From: a virus
Lineage: Duplodnaviria > Heunggongvirae > Uroviricota > Caudoviricetes
Strand: one strand, 5' to 3'
Virus record (IMG/VR): IMGVR_UViG_2778261176_000002
Location: 1-5,698 of that record
Length of the DNA stretch: 5,698 nt
Part shown: piece by piece, positions 1 through 5,698 of the stretch
How the letters are laid out: the number at the start of each line of letters is the position of its first letter
How positions within the stretch are numbered: the stretch's first letter is position 1
The notes under the pieces: model-generated
Seen by the model: only the letters and a program-made list of their open reading frames with translations
Told to the model about the DNA's origin: nothing
Databases searched by the model: none
Program-made: the position numbers and the translations under genes

Positions 1-745
1 TCTCGCGCGGATTTGCAGGACTGGTGATGTTCTTGCCGAACATGCAGCCTTTCGCCGTCAGCGACCAGAATTTTTTGATGTTGTTAATCGCGGTACGGCT
101 GTATCGTTCGCGCTGCTCGACGATCCCCAGCTTCACCATCTGGTGATATGCCTGATTAGCCGTAAGGCGGATACCATACTGTTTCAGCAGTGCACTCAGC
201 GACAGCGTAGGGCGACTTGAGCCATCAGGCGCGTCAGCAGGAGCATCAATGGCATAGCGCGGTGCCAGATTCGGTAAGCCAACAGCCTCCTGGAGTTTCT
301 GACAGGCACCAAGCACTGAAGAGTTAGACAGGTTTAATTCCCGGCGCATAAAGTCCAGCAGAATCACACCAGCCTGCATCTTGTCAGCAGCCTGCCCGGA
401 TAATTTTTCCGGTGCGCTGGTTACCATATCGAAAGTACGGATCACCTTCAGATGGAATGCCGGGCTGATCCACATTGTATAGGCATACACCAGTTCCTTG
501 CAGACATACGTTCCCCGTTCATTTCCCCCATGAATCACACTCACCGGGTCAACACCCAAATTCTGGGTGTTGGTCAATTCATGAACAAGCTCAACAGTTT
601 GTTGGCTGGAAAGAAACTTTCCTGGCTCCTTGGTTCTGGCATTTGCACCAGATGCTACTGCTGCGCGATGCAGATCGTTCAGGCTGTAACGCCCATAAGC
701 ATCACGACGAACTTCAATACCATCAATGACCATCAGATTATTCAT
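1..745 (-). CDS. KilA-N domain protein (antirepressor/Bro-like); partial, C-terminus lies beyond the left window edge
   Basis: Hand-translated minus-strand frame starting at ATG 745-743 (MNNLMVIDGIEVRRDAYGRYSLNDLHRAAVASGANARTKEPGKFLSSQQTVELVHELT...GTYVCKELVYAYTMWISPAFHLKVIRTFD...) is open to position 1. The N-terminal ~110 aa fit the KilA-N DNA-binding domain pattern. A GAGGAG Shine-Dalgarno lies 8 nt upstream of the ATG. Not in the ORF track because the frame has no stop inside the window. Confidence 0.7.
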   Translation of the reverse strand, partial: MNNLMVIDGIEVRRDAYGRYSLNDLHRAAVASGANARTKEPGKFLSSQQTVELVHELTNTQNLGVDPVSVIHGGNERGTYVCKELVYAYTMWISPAFHLKVIRTFDMVTSAPEKLSGQAADKMQAGVILLDFMRRELNLSNSSVLGACQKLQEAVGLPNLAPRYAIDAPADAPDGSSRPTLSLSALLKQYGIRLTANQAYHQMVKLGIVEQRERYSRTAINNIKKFWSLTAKGCMFGKNITSPANPRE

Positions 746-764
746 ACTTCGTTTCTCCTCTTAA

Positions 765-1154
765 TCAGGCGGCTGCACCCGCCGTTTTCTCGTACTTACT
801 GATAGTGATCTCGACCTTCCCTTCCGGGATAACCGGTCCCCACTCCACCAGCATTCTTTTCACCTGACTGTCGTCTTCCCACACACCCGCGTGGGTCAGG
901 GCGTCAAACAGCGCCTTGTTATAGTTGTCCAGATCGCGGATCCGGTTATCCGGAGGAAACAACACGATCTCCACTGAAGCAGGTGCCGACGTTGGTTTTG
1001 GCAGACGACGTAACTGCTCAACTATTGCTGCACACGCCGCGCTCTGGAATTTGCGCCCCGCCGCGCTTATCAGGCTCTTACCAGCAAACGCCCCTTTGTT
1101 GGGGTGTCGCCAGTACGTGTTCACGCTGGGCGGGAAAGGCAGGATCAGCTTCAT
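765..1154 (-). CDS. rusA: RusA-family Holliday junction resolvase (crossover junction endodeoxyribonuclease)
   Basis: 129 aa ORF MKLILPFPPSVNTYWRH...RIRDLDNYNKALFDALTHAGVWEDDSQV... shows the N-terminal PxxNxxYR-like motif and the acidic RDLDN / DAL..AG.W.DD core typical of RusA. AGGGAGA Shine-Dalgarno upstream. Its ATG (1154-1152) overlaps a TGA at 1153-1151. Confidence 0.85.
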   Translation of the reverse strand: MKLILPFPPSVNTYWRHPNKGAFAGKSLISAAGRKFQSAACAAIVEQLRRLPKPTSAPASVEIVLFPPDNRIRDLDNYNKALFDALTHAGVWEDDSQVKRMLVEWGPVIPEGKVEITISKYEKTAGAAA

Positions 1155-1222
1155 GCCACCATCTCCCTGACCAGTTTTTCTGCCTGCTGGCGAACCTGCG
1201 CCAGAAAGGCCTCACCACATGC

Positions 1223-1804
1223 CTAAAGTTCATCGCGCCCGATGTAGCTGATTGCCGGTCCCTTCCAAGTCTTGTCAAAAACAGCAATAGCACCAGCGAA
1301 GAAAGCGCCTGTCGGCACCTGCTTCTCATCTTTCGGGATAAACCAGGCAGGCAGTTCAAAACCAATACGCCCGCGAATAAAAGCAATATGATCTGCATCT
1401 TCCGGCCACCACACTTCGCTGGTGGCAGCTTTGATCAGGAAAACATAGCGCCCGCCCTTATCACGCATGGCACTGGCATGCTTCATGATGTAACGCATGC
1501 CGGTGATGTATTGCCCCTCATGCTGACTGGCGCGACTGTATGGTGGATTGCCAAAGGCAGCACCTTTAAGCTCCGCAAGGCGTTCTGACCAGTCACGCGC
1601 CAGCGCGTTGTCTTCCGCCGTGTAATACGCGGCACATTTGGCATTATCACCGTCAGTGAACAGATCCAGAACAAATGGGCCAAACAAGGTGTTAATTCCC
1701 CAGAAAATGCTGTCCGGCGTGCGCCACTGATCGCCCACCTCCTTCAGTTCATGGGATGGTTTGTTCCGCAGCTCCACCAGCGCCTGACAATATTTATTAC
1801 TCAT
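1223..1804 (-). CDS. Phage Dam-type DNA N6-adenine methyltransferase
   Basis: Same frame as track ORF 1223..1849, but started at ATG 1804 (MSNKYCQALVELRNK...) rather than the upstream GTG. Contains the N6-adenine MTase motif IV NPPY (AFGNPPYS). Ends at TAG 1225-1223. A GGGGGC Shine-Dalgarno-like stretch precedes the ATG. Confidence 0.8.
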   Translation of the reverse strand: MSNKYCQALVELRNKPSHELKEVGDQWRTPDSIFWGINTLFGPFVLDLFTDGDNAKCAAYYTAEDNALARDWSERLAELKGAAFGNPPYSRASQHEGQYITGMRYIMKHASAMRDKGGRYVFLIKAATSEVWWPEDADHIAFIRGRIGFELPAWFIPKDEKQVPTGAFFAGAIAVFDKTWKGPAISYIGRDEL

Positions 1805-1896
1805 TAAGCCCCCACGTAAAAAGCATCCGCAATGTCTCCGGAAGTACACCCCGGATGGGCTTCAATGAATTTCTGAACTTCATTCAAAAGACTCAT
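1804..1896 (-). CDS. Hypothetical 30-aa mini-protein (MSLLNEVQKFIEAHPGCTSGDIADAFYVGA)
   Basis: ATG at 1896-1894 lies 2 nt after the initiator stop (TGA 1901-1899) and is preceded by AGGGGGTGA with 5-nt spacing. Its TAA stop (1806-1804) overlaps the methyltransferase ATG as TAATG. Too short for the ORF track; coding status is inferred from coupling and the RBS only. Confidence 0.35.
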   Translation of the reverse strand: MSLLNEVQKFIEAHPGCTSGDIADAFYVGA

Positions 1897-1898
1897 GA

Positions 1899-2840
1899 TC
1901 ACCCCCTGAATCCTGCCGGGATCTGGCTGTAGTCCACGTTGTCGTAACTGGCTTTGAAGTACGGATCTTCGCGTTTTTCTGTGTACGTGCTGACGGACGG
2001 CGATAAGCGCAGGGAAAGCTCATCCCATTTTTCCCGCAGCTTCGACGGGCTGAGCACGTTACGGCACCAGAACGGATCGCGGCTGACGCGGCTGTACATC
2101 TCGCAGATTTGTTTGTGAGTACGACCATCCTGCACACACATCAGGCGAATTTCGTTTGCCCAGGCTGTCCAGTTCGGTTCTTTGGGACGAACCACCTCGC
2201 CGTCACATTCGGCAGCCTGCTCGTACAGGGCGATGATTTTTTTCCAGAGCCACTGTGCGCAGGTCAAATCATCCTGCGTTCCCCACTGGCGCTTTTTAGG
2301 GCTGAATACAACCGCATCAGGATGGCGAGTTAAAAAATCCTGTTCAGCCTTCTGCGTGTCCGGTTGCGAAGCGCCCGGACGAGAAGGTTTTTTATCTGAC
2401 GGATCATGTTTTGATTTTACTGACGGATCCCCGCCAGATTCTGACGGGTGAAAACCCGCTTTTTTGCCAGATTTCGACGCATCAAATTTTGACGGGTCAG
2501 ATTTTGATGCGTCAGATTTTGACGGGTCAGAATCTGACAGTTGAGAAAATGCCGCTGCCTGAAGCTTCGCAACGTTAAGCTGATAAACATTCGACGCATT
2601 GCGGTTACCCTGGCGACGCGCCTTACGCGTTAACCAGCCTTCTGCTTCCAGCCGTGCGATAGCCGTTCTGACGGTACTCATCCCCGCGCCAATCTGGCGG
2701 GCAATGGTTTCAATTGATGGCCAGCACACACCTTCGTCATTACTGAAATCAGCCAGGCGGGCCATAATTGCTACGCTGGATAATTTCATGCCTGACGCTG
2801 CGCAACCATCCCATACATAGCCGGTTAATTTAGTGCTCAT
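1899..2840 (-). CDS. Phage replication initiation protein (lambda O-like role): N-terminal winged-HTH, low-complexity linker, DnaT/primosome-like C-terminal domain
   Basis: 313 aa ORF. N-terminus [13 protein letters not shown]...SIETIARQIGAGMSTVRTAIARLEAEGWL reads as a wHTH. The central linker (SDSDPSKSDASKSDPSKFDASKSG...) is encoded by an iteron-like repeat array. GAGG Shine-Dalgarno 6 nt upstream of ATG 2840. Confidence 0.8.
   Translation of the reverse strand: MSTKLTGYVWDGCAASGMKLSSVAIMARLADFSNDEGVCWPSIETIARQIGAGMSTVRTAIARLEAEGWLTRKARRQGNRNASNVYQLNVAKLQAAAFSQLSDSDPSKSDASKSDPSKFDASKSGKKAGFHPSESGGDPSVKSKHDPSDKKPSRPGASQPDTQKAEQDFLTRHPDAVVFSPKKRQWGTQDDLTCAQWLWKKIIALYEQAAECDGEVVRPKEPNWTAWANEIRLMCVQDGRTHKQICEMYSRVSRDPFWCRNVLSPSKLREKWDELSLRLSPSVSTYTEKREDPYFKASYDNVDYSQIPAGFRG
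2394..2540. repeat. Iteron-like direct repeat array inside the initiator gene; putative phage origin of replication
   Basis: About eight copies of a TGACGG(G/A)TCA-type motif at ~15-16 bp periodicity. The best units are three tandem 15-mers ATTTTGA(C/T)G(G/C)GTCAG at 2486-2530, plus ATTTCGACGCATCAA at 2471-2485 and degenerate copies at 2394-2456. The core TCTGAC-GG-GTCAGA is itself a dyad. Placement inside the initiator linker mirrors ori-lambda inside gene O. Confidence 0.6.
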
Positions 2841-3009
2841 GACCGACCTCTATTTCCCTGAATTTACGACGAAACTGTTCGAGCGGACTGAAGCACTCAT
2901 GCTCATAGCCTTCGCGGAGGTAGATAACCCGTTGTGTTTCCGGCTCCCAACGAATGACTCTGACGGGCACTCCGTAGTGATCTTTGAACCAGCGGTTAAC
3001 TTGTTGCAA
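2830..3009 (-). CDS. Hypothetical small protein (59 aa, TTG start): (M)[58 protein letters not shown]
   Basis: Found by hand-translating the minus strand in the frame offset from track ORF 2850..3188. Strongly protein-like sequence. AAGGAG Shine-Dalgarno at 3023-3018 sits 8 nt upstream of TTG 3009-3007. TAA stop at 2832-2830 overlaps the initiator start by 11 nt. No ATG in this frame downstream of the TGA at 3039-3037. Confidence 0.4.
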
Positions 3010-3188
3010 AGGACTGTCTCCTTCTGCCGGTTGAAATCACCCACAGCCCACTCTGCAAAGCTGTGGGTTACAATTTCCCTGTCACCTGGTACATTCACTG
3101 CATAGCAATACTCCACCTTCGCTTTTCCACCCGGCACAGGAAGCGCAATCAGTTGCGAGCGACGGTAGTGTGTTGTTAAACTGTTCAT
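2850..3188 (-). CDS. Hypothetical protein in the frame coupled to the cII-like gene; likely genuine only in its N-terminal part (about 3188 to 3040)
   Basis: ATG 3188-3186 overlaps the cII-like stop as ATGA; GGAGAA lies ~10 nt upstream. The N-terminal ~50 aa ([52 protein letters not shown]) look protein-like. The C-terminal part (…[24 protein letters not shown]) looks like an out-of-frame read of feature 2830-3009. Confidence 0.3.
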
Positions 3189-3826
3189 GCGTTAGTTTCT
3201 CCACAACCAGAAGCAATCGACGCCACGACGCCCGGAGCTGCACACTCGCGGGCGTTACTCTTTTCCGGCGCACAAAAAACACGAAATAACAGTGTTAAAT
3301 GCTCCTGCCACTTCGCCATTACTTGGTAGCTGTTCTCTTCGATTTGCTCACGCTCAGCCTGATCAATAACTCCATCAGCAGTTGCCTTACGTAAGTACTG
3401 GGAATGCTTGCCAATCCATTCTATTGACTCCATCAGCCGCTGATTAATGTCACCATTGTCAATGTCATCAATGACCACCAGCGGCACAAACACCCCATTA
3501 CTACGACGGGCTATTGCATCCGTTACATGCCTGGTACCACTGGCATCCTGTAAAACCATGGCCCACTCGAGTGGAAAAATTTGATCCCCACCGCTACGCA
3601 GTCTGTTATGCAATTGATCTTTTGCTGGGGTGATATCATCAGATTTATACAAACCAAGAATTTCTGCTGCTTCCTCATAGCCATGAGGTAAATCAGCAAT
3701 CGTTCTTCGTATTGCTGCCACCAGCCATGCTGGCTGTTTATCAACTTTCCATTCAGGTTCTTTACCCACGTTTAAGTCCTCATATCTGTGGTTTCTGTAA
3801 ATCGATTTATCCATTAGATTTTTCAT
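3185..3826 (-). CDS. cII-like lysogeny-establishment regulator (possibly Phage_CP76 / cII-type family)
   Basis: Same frame as track ORF 3185..3883, started at ATG 3826 ([13 protein letters not shown]...); ATG 3814 is an alternative. Sits immediately after the cro-like gene, overlapping its stop, which is the cII position in lambdoid phages. The central segment [24 protein letters not shown] resembles, from memory, the conserved F-P-E-W-L-D block of CP76-type CII proteins; this was not verified by search. No good Shine-Dalgarno, so start may depend on coupling to cro. Confidence 0.55.
3190..3266 (+). ncRNA. Putative oop-like antisense RNA covering the 3' end of the cII-like gene
   Basis: Candidate sigma70 promoter on the + strand: TTGCGA (3153-3158), 18-nt spacer, TAAACT (3177-3182). 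The predicted start is near the cII-like stop and a + strand intrinsic terminator lies at 3228-3266, giving a ~75-nt transcript antisense to the last ~80 nt of the cII-like gene. This matches the lambda pO/oop arrangement. Hexamers are weak (4/6 each). Confidence 0.3.
3228..3266 (+). terminator. Rho-independent terminator-like hairpin with U-rich tail on the + strand (antisense, inside the cII-like coding region)
   Basis: Stem ACGCCCG+GAG (3228-3237) pairs with CTC+G+CGGGCGT (3245-3255) with one bulge; 7-nt loop; followed by TACTCTTTTCC. The reverse complement on the minus strand has no U tract, so the element is + strand specific. Confidence 0.4.
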
Positions 3827-4007
3827 AAAGCTCAGGTTTAAATGGCAACCGTCCGCAAGTTCTATATGCAGCCTCTGCTGCACGTCCTTTTGGAATTAAC
3901 TGGCCAGGACGGTTTCGCCACTGATAAACGGCTTCAGTTGTTATGCCGAAAAAAGCAGCAACTTTCTCAATGCTGCCGAAGTAGCTTTCGATATCGTCAG
4001 TCGTCAT
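3807..4007 (-). CDS. cro: Cro-like HTH repressor (YdaS/Cro family)
   Basis: 66 aa ORF divergent from cI. HTH segment SIEKVAAFFGITTEAVYQWRNRPGQLIPKGRAAEAAYRTCG matches the Cro/YdaS-type pattern. GGAGGG Shine-Dalgarno 4 nt upstream of ATG 4007-4005. Confidence 0.8.
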   Translation of the reverse strand: MTTDDIESYFGSIEKVAAFFGITTEAVYQWRNRPGQLIPKGRAAEAAYRTCGRLPFKPELYEKSNG

Positions 4008-4018
4008 ATGCCCTCCAA

Positions 4019-4035
4019 ACTAAGTTTTGTTAGAT
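4019..4035. promoter_or_regulatory. Operator-like dyad ACTAAGTTTTGTTAGAT (CTAA-N7-TTAG)
   Basis: 17-mer differing at only 2 positions from the site at 4797-4813 on the other side of cI. Overlaps the -10/+1 region of the candidate cro promoter. Confidence 0.5.
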
Positions 4036-4067
4036 CTTAATTATCAATCTATCTTAGGTCAATAAAA

Positions 4068-4083
4068 ACTAAGATTACTTAGT
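4068..4083. promoter_or_regulatory. Operator-like dyad ACTAAGATTACTTAGT
   Basis: Perfect 6-bp inverted arms ACTAAG / CTTAGT around a 4-bp centre; same CTAA-N7-TTAG geometry as the other sites. Lies just upstream of the candidate pR -35. Confidence 0.5.
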
Positions 4084-4104
4084 AATTAAAGAAATGGTGC
4101 TCCT

Positions 4105-4731
4105 ATGGAAACAGTTGGTCAGCGTATAAAAGCTCTGAGAAGGGTTACCAGAACGTCCCAGAAAGAATTGGGTAAATTTTGTGGAGTAAGTGACGTTGCT
4201 GTGGGGTACTGGGAGAAAGACATCAATGTCCCTGGTGGGGAAGCACTTTCAAAATTAGCGAAGTTCTTCAATACGTCAATAGATTACATTCTTTATGGTG
4301 CTGAGTTTGAAGGCAAACTCGTCACAAACATGCGCAGAGTTCCTGTAATCTCGTGGGTGCAGGCTGGGCAGTTTACTGAGTGCAGGACAGCAGAAGTGTT
4401 TAGTGAAGTAGACAAGTGGGTAGATACATCATTAAAGATTGGTGATAACTCATTTGCATTGGAGGTTAAAGGCGACTCCATGACTAACCCTAATGGCCTC
4501 CCAACAATACCAGAAGGCGCAACAGTGATTGTAGATCCTGATGCAGAACCCCGGCATGGAAAAATAGTCATCGCTAGACTTGATGGAACAAACGAAGCCA
4601 CAGTAAAAAAATTAGTTATCGATGGCCCTCAAAAGTTTTTAGTGCCATTAAATCCCCGGTACCCCAACATCCCGATCAATGGTAATTGCCTCATCATTGG
4701 TGTAGTCAAAGGAGTTCAATACGAACTCTAG
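4105..4731 (+). CDS. cI: CI-type prophage repressor: N-terminal XRE-family HTH, C-terminal S24 (LexA-like) autopeptidase domain
   Basis: 208 aa. HTH: TSQKELGKFCGVSDVAVGYWEK. Ala-Gly cleavage-site context VQAGQF. Ser nucleophile in KGDSMTNP and general-base Lys in ATVKKLV, all spaced as in LexA / lambda CI. Divergent from the cro-like gene. Confidence 0.9.
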   Translation: METVGQRIKALRRVTRTSQKELGKFCGVSDVAVGYWEKDINVPGGEALSKLAKFFNTSIDYILYGAEFEGKLVTNMRRVPVISWVQAGQFTECRTAEVFSEVDKWVDTSLKIGDNSFALEVKGDSMTNPNGLPTIPEGATVIVDPDAEPRHGKIVIARLDGTNEATVKKLVIDGPQKFLVPLNPRYPNIPINGNCLIIGVVKGVQYEL

Positions 4732-4751
4732 CTCCCCCTTTTCTCTAACCA

Positions 4752-4781
4752 AAACACCGAACTAAGAAAAGTTTGGTGTTT
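4752..4781. repeat. Inverted repeat AAACACCGAACT-aagaaa-AGTTTGGTGTTT immediately downstream of cI
   Basis: 12-bp arms with one G/T mismatch (G-U in RNA) and a 6-nt loop, 21 nt after the cI stop. Contains a CTAAG half-site. AT-rich stem and poor U-tract make it an atypical terminator; it could equally be a protein-binding dyad. Confidence 0.4.
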
Positions 4782-4785
4782 CCTC

Positions 4786-4814
4786 TTGCTATTAAAACTA
4801 AGTTAAGTTAGATT
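4786..4814 (+). promoter_or_regulatory. pL-like early promoter candidate: -35 TTGCTA, 17-bp spacer, -10 TAGATT
   Basis: Hexamers at 4786-4791 and 4809-4814 on the + strand, pointing into the gene at 4920. The spacer and -10 are overlapped by the operator-like 17-mer at 4797-4813. Confidence 0.4.
4797..4813. promoter_or_regulatory. Operator-like dyad ACTAAGTTAAGTTAGAT (oL analogue)
   Basis: 15 of 17 positions identical to the site at 4019-4035. Located downstream of cI where the lambda-type map places oL/pL. Confidence 0.5.
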
Positions 4815-4919
4815 TTATATCAAAGATAACGAACAGGCAGGACGCCCACGAAGTAGCCCGCCCGGTACGTACGAAGACCGGGATGATTCGTTAGCGGATG
4901 ATTTCAGTGGAGAGAATAG

Positions 4920-5228
4920 ATGAATGAGCAGGATTTGAAGCATGTGATCGCATTGTTGCTGGAAGACGCTAAACGTTTACAGCAGATAGAGCCAAATGCA
5001 GGCACTGAGGCCCGTATTTTGTTAGCAAAACAGGCATTAAAGACTTGCGGGGCGCAAGACCCTGATCGAACCAAGTTCATGAATTTCATGGCTAACACGA
5101 TCACCCCCCTGCCATGCAATGGAGAGAGGGTGAGCCGTGTTTATCACGACACAATGGTTAAGGCATTAAGAATCGAGCTTGATGGGCTTAGGCGTAAGAT
5201 CGTGATGAACAAAATCGTTGCCAACTAA
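4920..5228 (+). CDS. Hypothetical protein, first gene downstream of the pL-like region
   Basis: 102 aa ORF (MNEQDLKHVIALLLEDAKRLQQIEPNAGTEARILLAKQALK...VKALRIELDGLRRKIVMNKIVAN) with GGAGAG Shine-Dalgarno 5 nt upstream of the ATG. Predicted largely helical. No recognisable family and no arginine-rich N-terminus, so it does not look like lambda N. Confidence 0.6.
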   Translation: MNEQDLKHVIALLLEDAKRLQQIEPNAGTEARILLAKQALKTCGAQDPDRTKFMNFMANTITPLPCNGERVSRVYHDTMVKALRIELDGLRRKIVMNKIVAN

Positions 5229-5507
5229 GGAAGCAGACGGAAGTAAGCATGCGCTTTGTTCAAATTTGCAGACAAATATATTTGCGTCAACACCAGCACT
5301 GTTAGCAATGGAAAAAGTTTGATCAAGGATTTGTTGGCAGTTCATTGTGCTTTTGAGGATATATCCCTCTGGAATCAGTCTGCAGCAGCTATCGTCAGAC
5401 TCTTTGATTGTTTTCTGGTACAGAAAGTTAAGCATTAATTCTTCAAATTTTTTGGTCTGTTCGGCTGTTGCTTCAAACAGACGAACGTGAACATAAAACT
5501 GGTTCAT
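5166..5507 (-). CDS. Hypothetical protein, convergent with and overlapping the 3' end of the 4920-5228 gene
   Basis: Same frame as track ORF 5166..5543, started at ATG 5507 (MNQFYVHVRLFEATAEQTKKFEELMLNFLYQ...) because AAGGAA lies 6 nt upstream; ATG 5543 has only a poorly spaced GGTGG. Codon usage looks E. coli-like (CGT, CTG, GAA, CAG, AAA). No recognisable family. Confidence 0.5.
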   Translation of the reverse strand: MNQFYVHVRLFEATAEQTKKFEELMLNFLYQKTIKESDDSCCRLIPEGYILKSTMNCQQILDQTFSIANSAGVDANIFVCKFEQSACLLPSASLVGNDFVHHDLTPKPIKLDS

Positions 5508-5698
5508 TAGGTTTCCTTGCTGGCTGTGTGAGAACTCCAGCATACCACCGAGCCTGAAGTGGTGAAAAGACAGGCAATAGTTTCATTGCTGTGTGTAGTC
5601 TTGGCGCTACCAGCTTGTACCCTTGCTTCCGGCTGGTACCGTCCTTTTTACAAAACAGAGAAGAGCATCACCGGACGACGGGCTCATAACCCAATCCA

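Follow-up and report, generated by a model that had tools for sequence, protein, structure and literature searches.

The window analyzed here, the whole of a 5,698-nucleotide (nt) stretch of DNA from the Caudoviricetes (IMG/VR record IMGVR_UViG_2778261176_000002, positions 1 to 5,698), carries next to its immunity region two convergent genes that overlap at their 3′ ends, and these are, with near certainty, the ymfJ-ymfI pair of an e14-family lambdoid prophage. The product of the minus-strand gene, YmfI, is probably a distant member of the GhoS superfamily (it is not filed here as an orthologue of GhoS or as a demonstrated RNase), and the C-terminal motif of YmfJ, together with ymfI, appears from sequence comparisons to be a single heritable two-gene module that has been combined with at least three YmfJ N-modules and with unrelated prophage backbones. 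The best reading of the pair is that of a two-gene toggle between lysogeny and lytic growth, which we judge to stand about an even chance of being correct.

Identity of the convergent gene pair

4920 to 5228, plus strand: ymfJ, encoding a 102-amino-acid (aa), all-helical, modular protein (PHROG 12693; 92% identical to K-12 YmfJ).
5166 to 5507, minus strand: ymfI, encoding a 113-aa protein whose core (residues 1 to ~90) has a predicted beta-alpha-beta-beta-alpha-beta, GhoS/Cas2-like ferredoxin fold.
5166 to 5228, both strands: coding overlap of 63 bp at the 3′ ends of the two genes, in which codon position 3 of ymfI lies opposite codon position 1 of ymfJ.

The plus-strand open reading frame (ORF) begins at an ATG with GGAGAG just before it. 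The minus-strand ORF, at 5166 to 5543, is 125 aa long and contains an internal ATG at 5507 that yields the 113-aa form; this appears to be the real ymfI start, because AAGGAAA (5512 to 5518) stands 4 nt upstream of it and because it agrees with the start of YmfI in RefSeq. The upstream ATG (5543 to 5541) falls within the conserved −10 hexamer of the promoter predicted for ymfI itself, and 191 bp of sequence upstream of the ymfI start remain before the window ends.

In megablast searches of complete Escherichia coli genomes, positions 4823 to 5698 match e14-type prophages beside icd (locus L001) at 99.4%, and positions 4828 to 5579 match the e14 element of K-12 MG1655 (L002) at 95.9%; the annotation at both loci consists of ymfJ (or a hypothetical protein) and ymfI. 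At the protein level, 94 of the 102 residues of YmfJ and 97% of YmfI are identical to their K-12 counterparts. As in K-12 e14, where the genes are b1144 (ymfJ) and b1143 (ymfI), YmfJ is encoded behind an e14-type repressor gene, the pair is situated between the repressor gene and the xis-int side, the convergent overlap is the same 63 bp, and the region upstream of ymfI is the same. The window differs from K-12 e14 in its immunity module (repressor and operators), and, downstream, its closest relatives have yfdP/yfdQ/yfdR where K-12 has ymfH.

Both products fall into existing families. YmfI scores 161.6 bits (E value of 4.8e-48, over residues 1 to 90 of the 113-aa form) against NCBIfam NF051477, the “YmfI family phage protein,” whose curated cutoff is 140 bits, and it also matches PHROG 8894; YmfJ matches PHROG 12693 along its entire length (residues 1 to 102 of 102; E value of 8.7e-70). 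Neither PHROG has an assigned function. No NCBIfam or Pfam model matches YmfJ, Pfam searches and PDB sequence searches with both window proteins returned nothing usable (YmfJ having no detectable relative in the latter), and PADLOC-DB 2.0 yielded no defense family for either protein at an E value of ≤1. In the literature, we found no functional study of ymfJ or ymfI and no paper that connects YmfI with GhoS. The genes have long been annotated in K-12 e14, with no function assigned to them, and the locus itself is not undescribed.

A preliminary description of the window had reported a convergent pair of 102 aa (plus strand) and 113 aa (minus strand) with a 63-bp overlap, and this is borne out by the ORF list and the sequence. 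The same description erred in stating that neither product matches a family, given that they are ymfJ and ymfI of e14, represented by NF051477 and PHROGs 12693 and 8894, and the undescribed content that it anticipated in this region is a pair already annotated in K-12.

ymfI is a protein-coding gene with its own predicted promoter

5508 to 5577, minus strand: ymfI control region, with a −35 hexamer TTCACC (5566 to 5561), a 16-nt spacer, a TGn motif (5547 to 5545), a −10 hexamer TATGCT (5544 to 5539), and a strong Shine-Dalgarno (SD) sequence AAGGAAA (5518 to 5512); it forms the right-hand end of the mobile cassette.

YmfI has few relatives, amounting to 30 clusters of 75 to 99% identity, all from Enterobacteriaceae, and the differences among them are chiefly synonymous. 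Outside the overlap, dN/dS is 0.07 to 0.30 at a dS of 0.6 to 1.4 across six lineages, and a one-codon, in-frame indel is present among the relatives; substitutions within the overlap are mostly silent in ymfI and exchange I, V, L, and M for one another in the C-terminal helix of YmfJ. Excluding the stop codon, 276 of the 339 coding bases of ymfI lie outside ymfJ. By these comparative measures, ymfI is a real protein gene under strong purifying selection.

In some genomes, ymfI is represented by frameshifted or internally deleted variants (P0144 to P0146, P0148, and P0149); such decay of the gene in a portion of the population is what one would expect of cryptic prophages.

Across six YmfI lineages, hardly any variation is seen in the 70 nt upstream of ymfI, and the elements TTTCACCAC ... 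GTGGTAT(G/C)CT ... GCAAGGAAA also precede relatives of only 25 to 50% protein identity. ymfI probably possesses an extended −10 promoter of its own, which is predicted to operate independently of immunity because a repressor operator, when looked for in the control region, was not seen there and because the ymfI cassette is found beside several unrelated repressors. The promoter piece alone (window positions 5539 to 5576, ~35 to 38 nt, 97 to 100% identical) is present in several hundred further E. coli genomes with no gene annotated under it (545 genomes match it without having the full cassette). The distribution suggests a portable promoter that may serve different cargo genes.

Predicted fold of YmfI and its relation to GhoS

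The AlphaFold model of YmfI (pLDDT of 71.5, pTM of 0.64) contains strands at residues 2 to 11, 48 to 53, and 74 to 82 and helices at residues 15 to 27 and 57 to 70, and residues 85 to 113, which include the stretch overlapping ymfJ, are predicted to be disordered. That overlapping part (residues ~93 to 113) is a clade-specific tail. The predicted structure has the Cas2-like ferredoxin fold (beta-alpha-beta-beta-alpha-beta) by which GhoS is recognized, and GhoS (YjdK; PF11080; PDB accession number 2LLZ), the antitoxin endoribonuclease of the GhoT/GhoS type V system, is the top structural match of YmfI by two methods. In a Foldseek search of 350,542 chains, GhoS ranked first (probability of 1.00, TM scores of 0.54/0.60); a Foldseek search of viral models (BFVD) produced nothing significant. 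The two proteins share a core of ~92 to 98 aa and are collinear over their full length, such that residue n of YmfI corresponds to residue n+6 of GhoS.

At the sequence level, YmfI and GhoS are connected through intermediate relatives. A search of 1.8 billion representative proteins with a YmfI profile recovered relatives of 92 to 96 aa (P0151 to P0153, with E values of 1e-26 to 1e-30), as well as P0156, P0157, P0158, and P0160 at E values of 1.7e-7 to 1.5e-4. Two of these, P0160 (28.8 bits) and P0157 (24.2 bits), pass the Pfam GhoS model PF11080, for which the gathering score is 21 bits, and P0151, P0156, and P0158 match it weakly, GhoS being the top match for P0151 and P0158. These bridging relatives (P0151, P0156 to P0158, and P0160) all fall into PHROG 8894 with YmfI, and an hhalign comparison of a strict YmfI alignment with GhoS plus the bridging sequences gives a probability of 98.1% over 92 columns, in a test that is partly circular.

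YmfJ is a mosaic whose C-module travels with ymfI

4920 to 5045, plus strand: YmfJ N-module (residues 1 to 42), widespread and joined to many different C termini.
5091 to 5225, plus strand: YmfJ C-module (residues ~58 to 102), bearing the motif ITPLPCxG..V.RVYHDTMVKALRI, the part coinherited with ymfI.

A homology search with YmfJ returned 236 relatives. The consensus within residues 1 to 42 is ELKHVIALLLEDAKRLQQxEPNAGTEARI, and residues ~58 to 102 appear in alignments as ITPLPCxG..V.RVYHDTMVKALRIEL..., with this C-module also occurring behind two other N-modules, MEFKDLP... (in Klebsiella) and MLTNGYCSNKEE... (in Scandinavium). The motif RVYHDTMVKALRI varies synonymously across its codons, indicating that its conservation is at the protein level, and when it was checked for nucleotide constraint beyond coding, of the kind expected for an RNA target site, only ordinary synonymous variation was found. 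Outside the overlap, the dN/dS of the C-module is 0.08 to 0.65. The AlphaFold model of YmfJ has helices at residues 3 to 23, 29 to 43, 48 to 58, and 73 to 101 and no compact fold (pLDDT of 73, pTM of 0.28).

In P0063, P0087, and P0106 (133 aa), an N-module of the MEFKDLP type is fused with the YmfJ N-module in one protein. The small helical modules of the first genes behind pL appear to be shuffled like domains.

Across all loci compared, BLAST places the boundaries of the cassette at ~5100 (within ymfJ, at codon ~60) and ~5577 (70 nt upstream of ymfI). The C-module and ymfI occur together in icd-integrated prophages of the e14 type from E. coli and Salmonella (L001, L002, and L006), in Klebsiella prophages (L007 to L010) that occupy two other sites, carry other integrases, and have a Kil gene downstream, and in Scandinavium (L005), and prophages with three different integrases harbor the ymfI cassette. 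More distant pairs, in which YmfI is 44 to 50% identical, are present in L015 (14-bp overlap), L021 (8 bp), and L019 (42 bp), the last being a Rac-like prophage with KilR and RecE. P0157 (L018) occupies the same slot and faces, across a 4-bp overlap, a 66-aa protein that has no C-motif. Every relative examined retains the convergent arrangement, over overlaps of 63, 42, 14, 8, or 4 bp; it is convergence and pairing that appear to be conserved, the 63-bp overlap being a probable clade-specific extension of the YmfI tail. At least 80% of the cassette is covered in 303 of 5,426 complete E. coli genomes, and a tblastn search with YmfI against 50,697 isolated phage genomes found no match.

The pair is not always beside the immunity region. 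In a Klebsiella pasteurii prophage (L007, positions 5866 to 7915), inserted morons (DUF2767, a 58-aa ORF, and a HipA_2 plus DUF3037 pair) intervene between the ymfJ-like gene and the repressor, an interval that is a cargo hot spot.

A second type of convergent overlapping pair occupies the same slot in SfV, where orf33 (PHROG 3195) is opposed by an antisense 81-aa gene (PHROG 3311). In SfV, the pair has a promoter piece that is 97% identical over 38 nt to that of ymfI; L018 carries the orf33-type pair with the same portable promoter, and the overlaps are 83 bp (SfV) and 176 bp (L018); the SfV pair is unlike ymfJ/ymfI in that both of its proteins are unrelated to those of the window and its antisense gene lacks annotation in the SfV record. 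This 81-aa gene lies at 2221 to 2466 on the minus strand of SfV (L011; PHROG 3311, E value of 1e-55), with a “putative terminator” annotated over its start, and its counterpart lies at 3612 to 3857 in L018, where the orf33-type and GhoS-like pairs form a tandem. It thereby seems that convergent pairs sharing an antisense promoter are a recurrent feature beside pL in this phage group.

ymfJ lies behind a candidate repressor-controlled pL

4105 to 4731, plus strand: cI-like repressor gene (Pfam HTH_3, 3.5e-9, and Peptidase_S24, 1.6e-27), controlling pL and pR.
4786 to 4814, plus strand: candidate pL, as read from the sequence, with a −35 hexamer TTGCTA (4786 to 4791), a 17-nt spacer, and a −10 hexamer TAGATT (4809 to 4814).
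4797 to 4812, plus strand: operator oL (ACTAAGTTAAGTTAGA), within the pL spacer.
4821 to 4919, plus strand: ymfJ leader of ~99 nt, conserved by BLAST in e14-type prophages and partly in SfV and mEp460.

The 16-mer ACTAAG-N4-STTAGW is present at two sites (oR, at 4019 to 4034 and 4068 to 4083) between cI and a gene at 3807 to 4007 that is Cro-like by Pfam, and at one site (4797 to 4812) past cI. These three sites compare with 0.04 expected by chance, a statistic that is partly circular because the pattern was derived from the same three sites. TTGCTA...TAGATT makes a plausible pL/oL, with ymfJ as the first gene behind it. In BLAST comparisons, homology to e14 starts only at ~4823 to 4828, directly past the −10 hexamer of pL, and the e14 repressor differs. 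A homology break right after the pL −10 hexamer is the usual edge of a lambdoid immunity module. The leader contains a small hairpin, CCCGGT...ACCGGG; its fold as a whole is not significant (z score of −0.13), and it has no Rfam match.

Right past the repressor stop codon, at 4752 to 4781, lies AAACACCGAACT / AGTTTGGTGTTT, an inverted repeat that probably terminates cI transcription; a terminator is annotated at the corresponding place in the SfV record. The repeat is overlapped by a weaker operator-like copy (4760 to 4780).

Published data from K-12 bear on the control of both genes. Late in the SOS response, ymfJ is up by a log2 value of 4.8, alongside ymfM and intE, and the YmfJ protein was detected in the same study, in which ymfI is up by a log2 value of only 2.0 in data that may not be strand-specific (PMC11002266). 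ymfJ is also among the most strongly upregulated genes in a dam mutant (PMC11741368) and is up with the SOS cluster in a hupAB mutant (PMC2634741). These SOS, dam, and hupAB results agree with ymfJ being a repressor-controlled lytic gene.

Transcript overlap and a proposed toggle

5044 to 5058, minus strand: terminator-like hairpin (CTTGCGCCCCGCAAG then TCTTTAATG), a weak candidate within ymfJ, ~110 nt past the ymfI stop codon.
5603 to 5652, plus strand: terminator-like hairpin with a U-tract, located on the pL strand past the point where transcription has crossed ymfI in the antisense direction.

Termination at 5058 to 5044, should it occur, would make the ymfI transcript antisense to ~190 nt of the ymfJ mRNA; a stronger analogous site is present within the ymfJ-like gene of Klebsiella locus L009. 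No terminator was found on the pL strand between the ymfJ stop codon and 5603. With pL transcription meeting no terminator before 5603 to 5652, and with ymfI reading into ymfJ, the two RNAs would therefore be complementary over far more than 63 nt. From K-12 RNA-seq, ExcludonFinder catalogued ymfI-ymfJ as a convergent excludon (PMC12288877), a class defined by convergent or divergent opposite-strand neighbors with overlapping transcripts and, as a result, mutually exclusive expression; the window pair conforms to the overlap part of this definition through its 63-bp coding overlap and the transcript overlap of the K-12 pair (PMC12288877). Like excludons, ymfJ and ymfI are convergent genes with overlapping 3′ ends, and the pL transcript must cross all of ymfI in the antisense direction; unlike excludons, the coding sequences themselves overlap, the products appear to be functionally linked, and mutual exclusion is something that we infer.

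The spacer at 5578 to 5698 (in full, 6760 to 6935 of L001, from ymfI to yfdP) is conserved in many lambdoid phages without ymfI (SfV, mEp460, and Stx2c phages). The full element of L001 folds strongly (z score of −5.1) into a 13-bp hairpin with a U-tract followed by a 25-bp stem, which is kept in five loci with one compensatory change and whose 5′ arm, at 5645 to 5698, includes the U-tract and is cut by the window end. For the pL transcript, the element may serve as a regulated terminator or as a site of RNase III action or processing. An Rfam DicF match in this downstream spacer scores 19.4 bits against a gathering score of 48, and we do not consider the spacer a DicF member.

In the proposed toggle, ymfJ would be silent in the lysogen and turned on once the S24-type repressor is cleaved during SOS. 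ymfI would be expressed in the lysogen from its own promoter, and its convergent transcription would oppose leaky transcription from pL by collision or antisense pairing and possibly also through the YmfI protein, which may target the ymfJ/pL mRNA in the way that GhoS targets ghoT mRNA. Upon induction, the much stronger pL transcript, antisense across ymfI up to 5603 to 5652, would shut ymfI off. Whether transcription of ymfJ and ymfI is mutually exclusive is, in our estimate, evenly poised. The relation to GhoS suggests an RNA-directed activity for YmfI, and the coinheritance suggests that its target may be the ymfJ RNA or the YmfJ protein, with an action on the ymfJ/pL RNA being doubtful. 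The most far-reaching version, in which YmfI and the C-motif would form a new switch, with a GhoS-like, RNA-directed protein, produced from the antisense strand in the lysogen, acting post-transcriptionally to silence the first gene behind pL or the early-left transcript as a whole and being silenced in turn by pL read-through upon induction, must be considered a long shot.

Several observations weigh against reading the pair as a GhoS-like toggle. In K-12, ymfI also rises somewhat during SOS, which is a poor fit to clean mutual exclusion (PMC11002266), and the activity of the ymfI promoter, the mutual exclusion, and any RNA-directed activity of YmfI are inferred. The coding overlap is only 4 to 14 bp in deeper relatives, so that the 63-bp overlap is not the conserved feature. 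The YmfI of the window has no Pfam GhoS match at an E value of ≤1, falling below the gathering score of PF11080, and E. coli GhoS searched against PHROG 8894 has no match; hhalign of the YmfI family against a single GhoS sequence gives a probability of 2%, and local hidden Markov models (HMMs) comparing the bridging proteins with E. coli GhoS reach only 5 to 10 bits. We accordingly claim no direct sequence similarity between YmfI and E. coli GhoS, and their homology rests on the breadth of the Pfam model and on the fold. The ferredoxin fold is very common.

The putative active site is also altered. R28, reported to be the residue most important for the RNase activity of GhoS (PMC4010927), aligns, in an alignment-dependent correspondence, with E22 of YmfI, a residue that varies very little within the YmfI clade, and the bridging proteins have His at this position; strand 1 ends in an acidic residue in GhoS (D15) and in the bridging proteins (E), and YmfI has R or Q there (R9 in the window). 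Together, the R28-to-E22 and D15-to-R9 changes could be a charge swap or the loss of the site. In the ORF list of the window, no GhoT-like (PF10753) hydrophobic small ORF lies beside or downstream of ymfI, there is no ghoST-type operon, and YmfJ is predicted to be soluble and helical and is no membrane toxin. P0157, the most GhoS-like relative, pairs with the 66-aa protein devoid of the YmfJ C-motif. YmfI further differs from GhoS in having an extra disordered tail, in being prophage-borne, and in being encoded convergently with the gene for a helical protein.

The preliminary description had placed the plus-strand gene under a pL-like region beside immunity, and the operator at 4797 to 4812 together with the two in oR (0.04 expected) upholds that assignment. 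The antisense interference that it proposed is plausible, the K-12 pair being a listed convergent excludon (PMC12288877). Its suggestion that such genes are morons holds for one partner: ymfI is moron-like, with its own conserved predicted promoter, immunity-independent cassette boundaries, and association with three integrases, whereas ymfJ is repressor-controlled and induced late in SOS (PMC11002266). The roles that it had in mind, lysogenic conversion, exclusion, or defense, find no support here: ymfJ is no conversion moron, PADLOC gave no match, and we found no evidence for exclusion or defense. In resembling a lysogen-expressed accessory gene with its own promoter beside the immunity region, ymfI would be comparable to rexAB and sieB of lambda and other immunity-proximal morons; unlike them, it is antisense to pL and not cotranscribed with cI, and it has no sequence or family similarity to them and no known exclusion phenotype.

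Alternative explanations

The pair might instead be a type V-like toxin-antitoxin (TA) or abortive-infection moron, in which YmfJ, by way of its C-motif, inhibits growth as the effector, YmfI is an RNase or protein antitoxin, and the function is prophage maintenance or phage defense, not the regulation of lytic growth. YmfI has the fold of the GhoS superfamily and a family link to it, is strictly coinherited with the YmfJ C-motif, and is located in a moron hot spot (with the HipA_2/DUF3037 pair in the same interval of L007), and the occurrence of the cassette in 303 of 5,426 complete E. coli genomes, with YmfI unmatched in 50,697 isolated phage genomes, would likewise suit a TA system. We nonetheless consider this explanation unlikely. 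Neither protein has a PADLOC match, YmfJ lacks both membrane segments and any known toxin domain, and an equivalent of GhoS R28 is absent from YmfI; moreover, a type V antitoxin gene stands beside the cotranscribed gene of a small membrane toxin, whereas the neighbor here is the convergent gene of helical YmfJ, and the two genes are not cotranscribed, the putative toxin being repressor-controlled and the putative antitoxin having its own predicted promoter. e14 is also readily lost from K-12 (spontaneous deletions are listed) with no killing reported. A purely transcriptional excludon, for which only convergent transcription or antisense RNA matters and YmfI is an unrelated accessory protein expressed in the lysogen, strikes us as comparably improbable. 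Convergence is conserved in all relatives, the same portable promoter would drive PHROG 3311 antisense to the first pL gene, PHROG 3195, in SfV and L018, and the K-12 pair is listed by ExcludonFinder (PMC12288877), but the purifying selection on YmfI and the protein-level conservation of the YmfJ motif argue for protein function and coupling, and such an excludon leaves unexplained why YmfI always accompanies this C-motif.

Two further possibilities concern single genes. That ymfI is a chance antisense ORF or an annotation artifact, with ymfJ as the sole gene, might be supposed of a small ORF that lies opposite an operon, lacks a Pfam domain, and has frameshifted copies (P0144 to P0146, P0148, and P0149); it is effectively refuted by the dN/dS analysis (0.07 to 0.30 at a dS near 1), and the in-frame indel, the conserved SD sequence and promoter, the confident compact fold, the presence in this genomic slot of relatives with as little as 25% identity, and the 276 of 339 bases outside ymfJ all speak for a gene. 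We also reject, as highly improbable, the idea that YmfJ is an N-type antiterminator whose leader holds a nut site. YmfJ is indeed the ~100-aa product of the first gene after pL and follows a conserved leader of ~100 nt with a small hairpin, but its N terminus (MNEQDLKHVIALLLEDAK) is acidic and has no arginine-rich motif, it is assembled from interchangeable modules, and the first genes behind this leader in other phages are unrelated (orf33 in SfV; a gene for an HTH_17 protein in mEp460). Neither the fold of the leader (z score of −0.13) nor Rfam or Pfam lends support, and the defining features of lambda N, an N-terminal arginine-rich motif and a boxA/boxB nut site, were not found in YmfJ and its leader.

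Other features of the window

A 15-bp repeat, CAGATTTTGACGGGT, is present in four and a third copies at 2468 to 2531, within the O-like replication gene (1899 to 2840, minus strand), and the copies are probably origin iterons. An Rfam mir-5880 match at 2465 to 2539 is a false positive on these repeats.

Implications

The best-studied bacterium carries ymfI and ymfJ as uncharacterized genes, and late in the SOS response of K-12, ymfJ ranks with the most strongly induced genes (log2 value of 4.8; PMC11002266). What is new here is the family and fold assignment of YmfI, the recognition of YmfI and the YmfJ C-motif as one module, and the conserved portable promoter; the functional inference is weak, and a specialist would so far find no surprise in the results. 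For the K-12 pair, we offer the hypothesis that a GhoS-like protein is encoded antisense to a repressor-controlled gene and is inherited with it as one module. Should the hypothesis fail, nothing more than an annotated pair of e14 genes is left. If it is true, the logic of GhoS and type V systems would extend from a single chromosomal TA pair to the control of lysis and lysogeny in prophages, and the recurrent convergent-pair architecture beside pL would be explained. Were the reading as a switch to hold as well, a type V-antitoxin-like “lysogeny lock” would be present in E. coli K-12, and it would represent one case of a wider design, in which pL-proximal convergent pairs are built with one portable antisense promoter.

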